A stretch of DNA of 64,000 nt from the NCBI RefSeq assembly GCF_003790525.1, contig NZ_CP033635.1. One strand, 5' to 3'. Source of the DNA: Escherichia coli (GTDB lineage Bacteria > Pseudomonadota > Gammaproteobacteria > Enterobacterales > Enterobacteriaceae). The notes under the pieces are model-generated. The model had not been told where the DNA came from, made no database searches, and saw nothing but the letters and a program-made list of their open reading frames with translations. Positions 48,380 to 51,864 of the stretch are shown here, piece after piece (position 1 is the stretch's first letter; each line of letters starts with the position of its first letter). The position numbers and the translations under genes are program-made.

Positions 48380-49236
48380 TATTCACACTCCCCAACCAGA
48401 TTGAGGATGACCTCTGCACCATTGTCTTTCATATATTCGCCCTTTCCGCTTGCCAAAAACCAACGACACACCTCCACGGCTTCAGCCCGTGTCACCGGTT
48501 TGATGGTCATCAGCAATTTTTCAAGGTAGCGCTCGCGGTCATATACCGATTCGTGATGCTCAGAGTAACCATACTCATCGCCCTGTTCTTTAGTTGCAGT
48601 GTGGCGAACACTGTAGAGCCAGTCCCAGTAAACAAACTCACGAACTACGTCTGACAATGTATGAGGCTCTGGCAGTACATCACGATAGCCATCAACATAT
48701 GCACGACGCTGATCATCAATTTCATTCATACGGATGCCGTCAATTCTGCCCGCTTTCTTCTCGGCTGCAGTCCAGCCCCAGAGATGATCGTCGATAAATT
48801 TCTGGGAAGACTTGATCACTCGCTCGGCTTCCACATCTTCGAGTGCTGCTTCATAGCTACCAAACGTAGCCCTGACTGATGCTGCTTTTTTGATATTCTC
48901 CCGGGCGATCCTGATTGCCTGTGCCGGGTTATCCATGCCGATGGTACCGAAAGCAATCTGGAAAGGATCGCCACCATTCGCCAGCAGATAACGCGAATAG
49001 CGTTCCTGGGCCTCTTTTGGGGATATTTTAATTTTCACCAGCGCGGCCTCAGCAGCATCCAGATGTGCGGGTTCGTTCAGACGGATAACCTCCAGTACCC
49101 AAAGATAAGCATCAGTCTGCTTATGCCCGGTGATTCTCCGTTGCTCTGGCAGGGGTTTGATGTTTGCGAGGGCGGAGCTGTACGCTGCCGTCGGGATGGT
49201 GAATAGTGCTTTATGTTCGTTGTTATCAGTACGCAT
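48379..49236 (-). CDS. hypothetical protein (between primase and Q), function unknown
   Basis: 285-aa ORF; its stop overlaps the Q start and its start abuts the primase stop, suggesting translational coupling; no domain recognised. Confidence 0.6.
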
Positions 49237-50204
49237 TACGCAGCCGCCTTTTTCTTATGGAAAACCAGCTCCCGAACCTGATCACCGTTCATGAGCATAT
49301 TGTTGAAATCATCGTGATCCGGCCAGTACACGCTCACGCGCTGCAGGTCATTCTTTGCCATCAGATTGGCATGAGCACATTCGCAAGCCGCAGCCAGCCC
49401 GGTGGCGCTGTTCTCGTCACGGTCGGCAAAAATAATCAGGTGCAGAACACCAGCTGGTACGCGGAACTTTTTCATAAAGCCGCTGTTAATGGTTGCCCAG
49501 GTGTTCACGTTATAAATCTGGTGCGCTGACAGCGCTGTTTCGATGCCTTCGGCGATACCCAGAGTGCTGGCGACAGGAAACATGCGGATAGCTACAGAAC
49601 GAGCGTGATCCAGATAGTTATCTTCCTGCAGGGATTTTAGGCGCTTTGCACTGCTACCGATATCTGCTTTTTTATCACCATCAAGCAGGGTCTGGTGCAG
49701 ATAGCACAGCTCCCCTTTATCGTCCGTAGCAAGTGAATAAAGAGACTGGAACACACTCCCGTTGTGTCTCTGCCTGGCATTGAACCTGATCGCCTCAGCA
49801 GGAAGACTGAATATTCCACGAGAATTAAGATACGCGGCGCCGGATGTACCACGCAGTGCCTCCAGTTTTGAAAACTTGCTCAATACCCGTTTGCGTAAGC
49901 TGGTGGCGCTGCTGGTTACCGGGATTTTAACCCGTTGGTAATTATTACCGATCAGGCGGTCTATTTCGGTACAAATCACGTTAAATGGCTTCGCCTGTGT
50001 CAGGGTGACAAGTTTCATACCATCGCCACTACCACATACACAGATCCACGTTCCTGCACCGTCGCGGTCGTCAATTCGGAACTTGCCACGTGCACCGCAT
50101 ACCGGGCATTCACCCTTAAAGTGATTTTTTCCGGTTATCGGCGGCAGACCGAAGTGCTCTAATATTTCAGGCCAGCGGCCTTTCGCTGCATCTGCTGTTT
50201 TCAT
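49236..50204 (-). CDS. putative DNA primase (zinc-binding + Toprim domain)
   Basis: 322-aa; N-terminal CPVCGARGKFRIDDRDGAGTWICVCG zinc ribbon; acidic Toprim-like IIFADRDENSATG. Confidence 0.7.
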   Translation of the reverse strand: MKTADAAKGRWPEILEHFGLPPITGKNHFKGECPVCGARGKFRIDDRDGAGTWICVCGSGDGMKLVTLTQAKPFNVICTEIDRLIGNNYQRVKIPVTSSATSLRKRVLSKFSKLEALRGTSGAAYLNSRGIFSLPAEAIRFNARQRHNGSVFQSLYSLATDDKGELCYLHQTLLDGDKKADIGSSAKRLKSLQEDNYLDHARSVAIRMFPVASTLGIAEGIETALSAHQIYNVNTWATINSGFMKKFRVPAGVLHLIIFADRDENSATGLAAACECAHANLMAKNDLQRVSVYWPDHDDFNNMLMNGDQVRELVFHKKKAAA

Positions 50205-50205
50205 C

Positions 50206-51864
50206 TTACTGACTCAGACTGTTTATATTTTTCTGGAGTTGTTGCTTTGCCTGCATAATGCGCCAAGCCTCACTTTCTTCCGGTGGAACATACCGGCCAC
50301 CAACAACCAGTGGCAGAGAAAGCACTTCGGATGAGTTTTTCGTCATCCTCCGTGTCCGTTCACGACCTTTAGCAAACCGGATCAGCTTGTGTCTGATGTA
50401 GTTACTTACCTCTGGGCTTATTTCCATCGGGAAACTGCTCAACCCATCAGGCCATTCACCGAATTTCTCCCTGAAAGTGTGAGCGCACCATCCATCACTG
50501 ACTGGACGCCCCAGTGAGGCACGCTGGCGCTGATAAAATTTGATCTGACTCCACCAGGCCTGTTTCTCTGCCTTCGTGGACTGATGCTGATTTTTACCCA
50601 GCTTATTAAGTTTGCGGCTAGTGTCAGTATCAACGTCTTCACCTCGCAGCGGCTTGTGTCCACATTTCGGGCAAACATAGACGCCAGCTGGCTTCATGTA
50701 GTGGCATTGAGGGCATTCATGTGGCAATTTTTCGGCCCGTTCCTCAACTGCGCGGCGCGTGCTTTCCTCCATGCCGTCAGACTTACCGGGAAGATCGTCG
50801 TACTCGATTGAATCCGGATAACCCAGACGGTGCACGGTGCCGCTGTGATCGAAGATAAGGCAGGACGCTTTACCCGGTGCGGTGCGAAGTCCACGCCCGA
50901 GTGCCTGCAACCAGCGAATTTCGCTTTTTGTTGGCCTGGCGTAGATGATGCAACGAACGTCACTATCGAATCCGGCTACCAGAACGCCCACACTAACGAT
51001 GATTTTCGTTGCACCGGTTTCAAAGCGGTGAATGATGGTCTGGCGCTCATCTACCGGAGTGTCGGCGGTCATTACCTCAGCGTTAACACCCGCCAGGTTA
51101 AACTGGATTGTCAGATAATTGGCGTGAGCTACGTTGACGCAGAAAGCGATGGTAGGTAAATCCCGACCATTCTCCAGCCAGTTCTGTACGATGTCGCCCA
51201 CCAGCGTAGAGCCGCACATGATTTCAGCCAGCTGCGTTTCGTTGTAATCCCGGCCGTACTCAAGCGAAGATGTGGTTTTAACACCTTTCAGATCCGGCTT
51301 AGTTGGCGCGTAAAATTCGTATTTACTCAGATCGCCACGCTGGATTAACTCGCCGATGGTGGTCGGCTTAATCAGTCGGTCATAGTATTTGCCCAGGAAC
51401 GGAGAAAACGGAGTACCCGACAGGCCAATCACCTTTACGCCTTTGCCGCGCAGACGTTCGATATCCTTCAGGATGCGTTTTTTACGCAGGTGCGCTTCGT
51501 CGATAATCAGCAGATCGATATTTTCAGGAAAAACACGACGAATAAGCGTGTCAGCGCTGGCAATCTGAATTTTCCGGTCCGGATCGTAGTTCGGGTGATC
51601 CGCCCAGATATAACCGATTTCATCTCCAGGTAAACCATACTGCACGAACCGATTAGCCGTCTGACCAATCAGGATGGTGTACGGAACACAGAACAGAACA
51701 CGCATACCACGGCTGACAAAACCAGCAACTATGAAGGCTGCCAGACCCGTTTTACCGCTACCTGTTGGCGAGTAAACCATGAAGGTGTCGTTTGCCTTCC
51801 AGTCACGGCGCAACATGTTTAGCGCTCGTTCCTGTGCAAAATTCGGCGTGATTGTCAGCTGCAT
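50206..51864 (-). CDS. SF2 (DEAD/DEAH-box) helicase with C-terminal zinc ribbon
   Basis: 552-aa; Walker A SPTGSGKT, DEAH box LLIIDEAH, C-terminal CPQCHY...CPKCGH. Confidence 0.8.
   Translation of the reverse strand: MQLTITPNFAQERALNMLRRDWKANDTFMVYSPTGSGKTGLAAFIVAGFVSRGMRVLFCVPYTILIGQTANRFVQYGLPGDEIGYIWADHPNYDPDRKIQIASADTLIRRVFPENIDLLIIDEAHLRKKRILKDIERLRGKGVKVIGLSGTPFSPFLGKYYDRLIKPTTIGELIQRGDLSKYEFYAPTKPDLKGVKTTSSLEYGRDYNETQLAEIMCGSTLVGDIVQNWLENGRDLPTIAFCVNVAHANYLTIQFNLAGVNAEVMTADTPVDERQTIIHRFETGATKIIVSVGVLVAGFDSDVRCIIYARPTKSEIRWLQALGRGLRTAPGKASCLIFDHSGTVHRLGYPDSIEYDDLPGKSDGMEESTRRAVEERAEKLPHECPQCHYMKPAGVYVCPKCGHKPLRGEDVDTDTSRKLNKLGKNQHQSTKAEKQAWWSQIKFYQRQRASLGRPVSDGWCAHTFREKFGEWPDGLSSFPMEISPEVSNYIRHKLIRFAKGRERTRRMTKNSSEVLSLPLVVGGRYVPPEESEAWRIMQAKQQLQKNINSLSQ

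Follow-up and report, generated by a model that had tools for sequence, protein, structure and literature searches.

A helicase and primase module of the Eru1 type in an Escherichia coli lambdoid prophage, with a conserved upstream element as its candidate origin

The locus described here is the early-right operon of a lambdoid prophage in Escherichia coli (contig NZ_CP033635.1, assembly GCF_003790525.1), contained in a stretch of 64,000 nucleotides (nt) that is referred to throughout as the window. Its genes follow the order cI, a cro-like gene, a gene for a protein of 97 amino acids (aa) designated p97, a conserved non-coding element, an HNH endonuclease gene, a helicase gene, a primase gene, a gene for a 285-aa protein, and Q (Table 1), with only 1 nt between the helicase and primase genes. 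These two genes occupy the slot between cI/cro and Q that is held by O and P in phage lambda, which is also the position characteristic of the replication unit known as Eru1. An earlier note on this DNA, made from the sequence alone, had proposed such a replacement of O and P by a 552-aa helicase and a 322-aa primase; both open reading frames (ORFs) had been placed exactly, on the minus strand, and the proposed replacement is upheld by their position and by the failure to find relatives of O or P. The coordinates given in that note stopped short of the conserved non-coding element and of the HNH insertion, both of which lie just outside them.

Table 1. Features of the early-right operon, listed from cI towards Q (window positions)
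Feature	Position	Strand	Basis or remark
cI	53351-54118	+	
cro-like gene	53022-53294		
97-aa gene (p97), phrog_852	52716-53009	-	
Conserved non-coding element, 240 nt, candidate origin or cis-acting site	52476-52715	-	
TTAAAGGT-loop hairpin, ACCGGGC-TTAAAGGT-GTCCGGT	52689-52710	-	8-nt loop conserved; stems differ between relatives
Site 1, long hairpin around palindrome TAGACGTCTA	52632-52675	-	
G-rich run GGGGGAAAGGGGGCGGTG on the sense (non-template) strand	52598-52615	-	
Mini-hairpin AGCGC-GAA-GCGCT	52575-52587	-	
Invariant core ACATAGGTTAGGTAGATC (family consensus CATnGGTTArGTAG)	52530-52547	-	Overlaps a GATC site
Site 2, GGACGCCTAGACGTCCAGATGTA	52477-52499	-	Repeats the site 1 motif; can pair with site 1
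HNH endonuclease gene (NUMOD4 + HNH_3)	51855-52475	-	Pfam/PHROG/defence library
DEAH-box helicase of superfamily 2 (SF2), Eru1A-like, 552 aa	50206-51864	-	ORF + Pfam/PHROG
Stand-alone P4-alpha-type primase, Eru1B-like, 322 aa	49236-50204	-	ORF + Pfam/PHROG
285-aa protein, phrog_6204	48379-49236	-	PHROG
Q	47957-48379		ORF list + library scans

The helicase and primase genes and their relatives

Library scans conducted with the helicase returned the Pfam domains ResIII (2.7e-15), DEAD (9.8e-10) and Helicase_C (2.1e-10) together with phrog_16, 'DNA helicase' (1.4e-103), and the motifs read from the sequence comprised a Walker A motif GSGKT (residues 35-39), DEAH (122-125), QALGRGLR (320-327) and a zinc ribbon formed by CPQC (384-387) and CPKC (398-401). 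Comparison with NCBIfam models and solved structures identified RadD, RecG, PriA, UvsW and XPB-type enzymes, which are loop and fork remodellers rather than ring helicases, as the nearest relatives of the helicase core. The best match by both routes was RadD (YejH), the SF2 DNA repair helicase of E. coli, which likewise has a zinc-ribbon element after its second RecA-like domain; full-length membership did not follow, the score against the RadD equivalog NF053632 being 93.8 bits with a cut-off of 720. The C-terminal region consists of the zinc ribbon and a confidently modelled helical domain common to 926 cluster representatives.

Equivalent scans with the primase returned Zn_Ribbon_Prim (PF08273; 3.6e-14), DUF7146 (3.3e-13) and Toprim_3 (1.8e-14) from Pfam and phrog_510, 'DNA primase' (1.6e-129), and located the motifs CPVC (residues 33-36), AEGIETA (218-224) and ADRD (260-263). 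A BLASTP alignment with residues 8-262 of the alpha protein of phage P4 (26% identity, 4e-19) covered the zinc motif CPVCG...GTW.C..CG.GDG.KLV, the IAEGIETAL motif (IAEGYATAL in P4) and ADRD, and indicated that the N-terminal primase domain of alpha, with its zinc motif, EGYATA-type Toprim motif and DRD, is homologous. However, whereas P4 fuses its primase to an SF3 (superfamily 3) helicase and a C-terminal origin-binding domain, the window primase stands alone, ending at residue 322 with the alignment stopping at alpha residue 262, and the helicase is a separate SF2 protein; furthermore, the annotation of the P4 record places TGTTCACC-type iterons in both ori and crr, and the window module is without iterons. 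The DEAH-box SF2 helicase with a C-terminal zinc ribbon recognised in the earlier note thus agrees with both the domain profiles and the motifs, as does its zinc-finger/Toprim primase with the Pfam, PHROG and P4 alpha evidence.

The ResIII match, and weaker helicase matches to PbeA, a type IV restriction endonuclease (REase), DpdF and Cas3 helicase subunits, together with the automatic annotation of the copy in phage phi467 as 'type I restriction enzyme EcoKI subunit R', might suggest that the two genes form a defence, restriction or anti-defence cassette. These PADLOC and NCBIfam matches, scattered over PbeA, type IV REase, DpdF, Cas3 and type I R proteins, nevertheless cover the generic SF2 core only, and every one from NCBIfam falls far below its cut-off. 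No methylase, specificity or other partner gene is present, and scans of the primase and neighbouring genes matched no defence partner, the HNH gene alone being recorded, as a 'homing endonuclease'; with partial core matches and no partner genes, the helicase does not belong with the type I/III R, DpdF, PbeA or Cas3 helicases. Its neighbours are phage regulatory genes, the homing endonuclease gene and the primase gene, the O/P-slot position is fixed across hundreds of lambdoid genomes, complete phages contain no other replication genes, and the primase carries the catalytic motifs of P4 alpha. A role in defence is consequently regarded as scarcely credible, the possibility raised in the earlier note that domain searches might assign the proteins to such a system having yielded nothing beyond sub-cut-off core matches.

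Searches for any other initiator were no more productive. No O-, P-, DnaB- or DnaC-like gene was found by Pfam or PHROG scans among the genes of the early-right operon, and PHROG scans of the ten largest ORFs of the early-left region (54.2-63.8 kb), which comprise regulators, an Ant-like protein, unknowns and an integrase, returned no replication-protein match. In the complete virion phage YP3 of Yersinia (37 kb), the helicase and primase, with p97 directly upstream, are the only annotated replication genes; the separate O-like initiator for which the earlier note had left room was accordingly found neither in the early operons of the window nor in the annotation of YP3. Between Q and cro, Tandem Repeats Finder detected no tandem repeats, local k-mer clusters did not exceed those of shuffled sequences, and direct repeats were at chance level only; a fine GC profile likewise revealed no AT-rich dip in this interval, the helicase and primase genes included (GC >= 0.45). 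The iterons or AT-rich origin that the same note had suggested seeking in or near these genes therefore amounted to nothing beyond chance. With no Phage_rep_O match, no iterons and no P/DnaC/DnaB-type loader or helicase, the module does not belong with lambda O/P: it has no O-type iteron-binding initiator, and is a module of the non-lambdoid Eru1 (Fels-1/phi467) type, transcribed from pR after cro and p97. The helicase and primase very probably constitute the replication module of the prophage.

This type of module has already been published, and the window adds another member to it. Llarena et al. (2021) named the unit Eru1 in phage TL-2011c, eru1A coding for a DEAD/DEAH SF2 helicase and eru1B for a Toprim protein, and recorded it in the Stx2a (Shiga toxin 2a) outbreak phages TL-2011c, P13374 (O104:H4) and PA2 (PMC8044961). 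A follow-up paper stated that, for Eru phages, nothing was known of the proteins responsible for replication, and for no member has the requirement of an Eru1-type unit for phage DNA replication been shown experimentally (PMC8951638); the earlier note, in calling both the origin and the way in which initiation proceeds unclear, is accurate for the literature as well. Over residues 1-504 the window helicase shares 66% identity with its counterparts in PA2, PA8 and P8983, as expected of an Eru1A protein, and the primase, coded for directly downstream as is the Toprim protein Eru1B, is 57.5% identical over residues 1-318 to those of P13374 and PA2. A counterpart of the third gene, eru1C (DUF1367/NinB), was not found, the 285-aa phrog_6204 protein, for which Pfam gave no match, standing in its place. 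Comparison with PA2 in particular confirmed the same cI/cro-Q slot, the same succession of SF2 helicase and Toprim protein, a p97 homologue upstream, and an upstream non-coding stretch in which a hairpin and a G-run accompany the identical core ACATAGGTTAGGTAGATC. By way of contrast, PA2 has NinB where the window has the 285-aa protein, a 125-aa gene instead of the HNH gene between element and helicase, and no TTAAAGGT-loop hairpin.

Two phages proved to be closer relatives. The Stx2f phage phi467, which is not listed in the supplements of the Eru paper, has essentially the same module (97.7% DNA identity over the matched 81% of a Q-to-cI query), and Salmonella phage Fels-1 (STM0901.1n / STM0901, annotated as 'putative helicase' and 'putative bacteriophage DNA primase') shares 86% DNA identity over 56% of that query. 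Both contain the same variant of the element, with a GCGAAGC-type mini-hairpin, but differ from the window in having a 122-aa gene in place of the HNH gene, and GTACTAG/CTAGTAC rather than TAGACGTC at sites 1 and 2. The same module was also found in Cronobacter ENT39118, in Yersinia YP3 and in E. coli phage Fostie, and, of 5426 complete E. coli genomes, 101 contain it at megablast level. Where the helicase was 86-100% identical to that of the window, as in 80 IMG/VR loci, the order was p97, non-coding stretch, helicase, primase, the 285-aa gene where present, and Q, with cI and cro varying. Beyond these, 785 phage records contain a more distantly related helicase, 147 of them being records of Streptococcus phages. 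Among these, the modules of Streptococcus thermophilus or dairy phages of Sfi21 type have a homologous SF2 helicase at 24-26% identity over ~70% of its length, a very distant sequence relationship. In Sfi21-type modules, too, this helicase is accompanied by a primase, and the origin is a short non-coding one. Among distant metagenomic relatives the two genes are adjacent once again, on contigs (L090-L093) too short to cover the upstream regions.

The conserved non-coding element

In most relatives p97 and the helicase gene are separated by ~430 nt which, with stop codons in all three frames, are non-coding. The element in this interval is typically conserved at 95-98% nucleotide identity, compared with 77-90% for p97, ~90% for the helicase and 71-82% for the primase. 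Locus L055, for example, gave 97.0% for the element as against 78.8%, 92.5% and 71.2% for p97, helicase and primase, the corresponding values for Cronobacter ENT39118 being 88.3%, 79.5%, 80.4% and 71.1%.

Five variants of the element were aligned, namely those of the window, of phi467/Fels-1, of the majority type (variant A, represented by locus L004), of the Eru1 phage PA2 and of Klebsiella phage P18-100. At least four of the five share, in order, one or more TTAAAGGT-loop hairpins (not present in PA2), a site 1 hairpin, the G-run, the core, a second short hairpin adjoining an A-rich run, and site 2, which repeats the half-site of site 1. The core, which usually ends in GATC, is invariant across these divergent variants, PA2 and P18-100 included, and in PA2 both core and G-run persist though its helicase is only 66% identical. 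The TTAAAGGT loop is carried unchanged by three different stems, as a single copy in the window and Fels-1 and as two tandem copies in the majority variant (L004 3590-3645). At site 1, relatives have a hairpin of other sequence (GTACTAG...TAGTAC, or TTAGTTGC...GCAACTAA in PA2). In 131 unique elements, G makes up on average 41%, and C 10%, of the 100 nt on the 5' side of the core; all 131 contain a run of 4 or more G, and a canonical G-quadruplex motif is present in 101. At the G-run of the window the GC skew is -0.30 to -0.35 on the plus strand. The GCGAAGC sequence contained in the mini-hairpin forms an unusually stable DNA hairpin, and the form taken in Fels-1 and phi467, AGTGC-GAA-GCACT, is a two-sided compensatory change. 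Overall, the named hairpins were 89% paired in 46 distinct sequences as opposed to 30-56% for slid controls, with a few two-sided changes; in the alignment of the TTAAAGGT hairpin, helices 2 and 3 were 98% paired and a change from UA to CG was recorded in 12 sequences.

Linkage to the helicase proved to be strict. When IMG/VR was searched for exact matches to the 18-mer CCATWGGTTARGTAGATC of the core, at least 120 loci were found; among the 120 matches listed, 107 are followed at a distance of 100-800 nt, and on the same strand, by a helicase of the family, 12 end at a contig edge, and one (L157) has a helicase pseudogene, so that core and helicase are linked in 107 of the 108 listed loci with enough downstream sequence. 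In L157 (3200-5900) the helicase gene is split by frameshifts and by insertion sequence (IS) DNA, including two IS-type transposase ORFs (3223-4430), with p97, the element and a gene for a 128-aa protein remaining intact. No record of the phage and plasmid collections was found to contain the element without also containing this module; the PA2 form of the element occurs in 98 phage records, mostly of Stx2a phages.

A natural exchange is provided by L004, in which cI, cro, helicase and primase are 100% identical to those of the window and p97 is 97% identical, but the 430-nt majority variant, without an HNH gene, replaces the 240-nt variant and following HNH gene of the window. As the proteins are nearly identical, the 3' third of the long variant, together with a 19-aa leader ORF at its end, must be dispensable or replaceable, and the sequences of sites 1 and 2, which differ between the two loci, are not what the proteins of the module read. 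Sites 1 and 2 were accordingly rejected as operators of any of these proteins (p97, helicase, primase, cI or cro). Hairpin, G-run and core alike stay constant between the two loci.

The position of the element in the 5' untranslated region of the helicase gene raises the alternative that it serves as a leader at the level of the transcript, through cis antitermination, attenuation, or translational coupling or control of the helicase, with the origin elsewhere, for example inside the helicase or primase gene. Its density of hairpins would be in keeping with such a role, as would an excess of G-U-compatible over A-C substitutions (28 as against 13), the better folding of the sense strand in the window (z = -5.75; antisense, -2.39), the conserved leader ORF which overlaps the helicase start at the end of variant A, and the recurrence of an identical 8-nt loop on different stems, reminiscent of protein-binding RNA hairpins such as boxB. 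On the other hand, no relevant Rfam 15 family was matched by window positions 47800-54400 or L004 positions 2100-4200 at E<=5, and no second, nutL-like copy of the TTAAAGGT hairpin was detected in the pL operon or elsewhere in the window, for which reason a nut-like reading of this hairpin was set aside. Paired and unpaired columns of the alignment were, moreover, equally conserved (39% and 43% variable, respectively), an indication that the constraint is on primary sequence; the genes contain no AT-rich or repeat feature that could serve as an alternative origin; and the 3' third, leader ORF included, is replaced by the HNH gene or the 122-aa gene in other variants. A leader with the origin elsewhere is on balance considered unlikely. 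From these sequence comparisons we conclude that the element is a real cis element, linked to the helicase and subject to strong constraint, that may act as DNA or as RNA.

The element as a candidate origin

The origin of the module may quite possibly, if tentatively, be sought in this element upstream of the helicase gene. The G-rich strand of the element is the non-template strand downstream of pR, and no terminator-like site was found between cro and the helicase gene, an arrangement resembling that of origins primed by transcription or R-loops. Such origins, namely those of ColE1 (RNA II), phage T4 (oriF/oriG) and mitochondria (conserved sequence block II, CSBII), likewise have no iteron-binding initiator, and in them, too, many hairpins are combined with a non-template strand that is rich in G and follows a strong promoter. 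The analogy is mechanistic only: there is no sequence relationship, a persistent RNA:DNA hybrid in the module is hypothetical, and no part is claimed for RNase H or Pol I. The module itself belongs to none of the ColE1, T4, mitochondrial, UL9 or PriA families.

On this analogy, loss of the repressor would allow transcription from pR to cross the hairpin-dense stretch, where the G-rich sense strand would favour a stable RNA:DNA hybrid and a folded displaced DNA strand, the duplex thereby being opened without a DnaA- or O-like melter. The SF2 helicase, by means of its zinc ribbon and C-terminal helical domain, might then engage the opened structure, the core CATnGGTTArGTAG or both, and enlarge the opening, acting in the manner of PriA or of UL9 of herpes simplex virus and not as a ring-shaped replicative helicase. 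The Toprim primase would lay primers, and host polymerase III, probably with DnaB, would take over. The R-loop step of this scheme is the more doubtful part, and it is with comparable reserve that the 240-430-nt element is put forward, by analogy, as an initiator-less origin activated by transcription and by R-loop or G-quadruplex formation, and read by the SF2 helicase and Toprim primase.

Several observations weigh against placing the origin in the element. Its conservation would fit a regulatory leader equally well, and the proposal has been drawn entirely from the comparison of sequences. As read from the sequence, the element contains no obvious AT-rich unwinding stretch or DnaA boxes. 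The difference at sites 1 and 2 between the window and L004 requires that any recognition there be other than by sequence, and the C-terminal helical domain of the helicase matched no known fold and has no recognisable DNA-binding fold. Covariation in the main variant is weak (5 compensatory types as against 44 mismatch types), and the strand asymmetry of folding in variant A (z = -3.74 for sense, -4.85 for antisense) is inconsistent with that of the window; DNA-level and RNA-level functions therefore cannot be told apart and, given this inconsistent strand preference and the weak covariation in variant A, no structured RNA is claimed.

A further alternative is that the module has no fixed origin, the helicase and primase forming a PriA-like primosome for restart or recombination-dependent replication at any R-loop or D-loop, and the element having some other role. 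The closest SF2 helicases (RadD, RecG, PriA and UvsW) do indeed remodel forks and loops and are not replicative, and no iterons were found. However, complete temperate phages, which must start from a circular monomer, have no replication gene set other than this module, and neither the strict linkage of a cis element beside the helicase nor its extreme conservation would be explained; a module without a fixed origin is thus judged improbable.

With respect to the element as origin, what is new is a precise and clonable candidate, consisting of the invariant core, G-run and hairpins, for which the natural set of variants (with the HNH gene, with the 122-aa gene and with neither) defines the dispensable parts. 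The replication of Stx prophages sets the gene dosage of stx and hence toxin output, and the Eru1 type is carried by the most virulent outbreak strains; the candidate makes the acknowledged gap concerning Eru1 Stx phages directly testable. Were the proposal to prove correct, a replication start like that of ColE1, T4 or mitochondria would exist inside a lambdoid phage. The Eru1 Stx2a phages of the O104:H4 and O103:H25 outbreaks would have it too, and derepression of the prophage would be directly coupled with amplification of the genome and of the stx genes.

Accessory and neighbouring genes

The p97 gene was present in every locus for which upstream DNA was available, cI and cro varying there, and in 107 of the 120 listed core-motif loci. 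Its homologues number 479 proteins, all annotated as 'hypothetical', and share the invariant motif EPVS[FY]RxENRARHEANxRLRxFV. No Pfam family was matched, and a relationship to lambda cII was rejected (hhalign probability 0.1); an AlphaFold2 model gave three helices at low confidence (pLDDT, the predicted local distance difference test score, 63). In Yersinia YP3 (L086 / PV092592.1 25120-25462) no cro gene separates p97 from the divergent cI, which lies only 48 nt from the start of p97; p97 therefore occupies the Cro position in that phage.

The HNH gene is a free-standing homing-endonuclease gene, and its stop codon overlaps the start of the helicase gene. The HNH gene is absent from L004, and relatives have in its place either a 122-aa gene or the 19-aa leader ORF, which in L004 (3947-4006; the majority variant) codes for MKTTSQNYYLISTGAAQCS, is preceded by its own Shine-Dalgarno sequence and overlaps the helicase start. 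Since the HNH protein ends in the same ...AAQCS as the leader ORF, its insertion kept translational coupling. In a distant relative (L093) an HNH_3 gene lies between the helicase and primase genes, on which ground the module seems to be a recurrent homing target. Genes of 122-128 aa occupy the HNH position in phi467 (L001 6600-6968), in PA2 (gp40; L094 4133-4510) and in L157 (5872-6258); the phi467 copy gave no Pfam match, and inspection by eye of these proteins suggested a VDI...IE[IV]DR pattern reminiscent of small PD-(D/E)xK nucleases, a candidate likeness. The 285-aa gene is optional, being missing from several loci and present in 52 of the 120 listed core-motif loci, and its product matched nothing in Pfam, NCBIfam or the PDB.

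The right-hand boundary of the prophage lies at ~60.8 kb, where an integrase gene (59497-60810, plus strand) is followed from ~60837 by host genes (yecE, according to the annotation of E. coli TUM1886). A gene for a 368-aa porin (46672-47778, plus strand; 'porin' in the TUM1886 annotation) separates Q from the lysis cassette, runs opposite in strand to the late genes of the phage, and looks like a lysogenic-conversion (moron) gene. It is itself separated from the lysis genes by a 326-aa transposase ORF, IS5-type as read by eye (45396-46376, plus strand); since the holin-porin interval of the 99.9% identical TUM1886 prophage is without an annotated transposase, this ORF has the appearance of a recent insertion, one that might affect late transcription.

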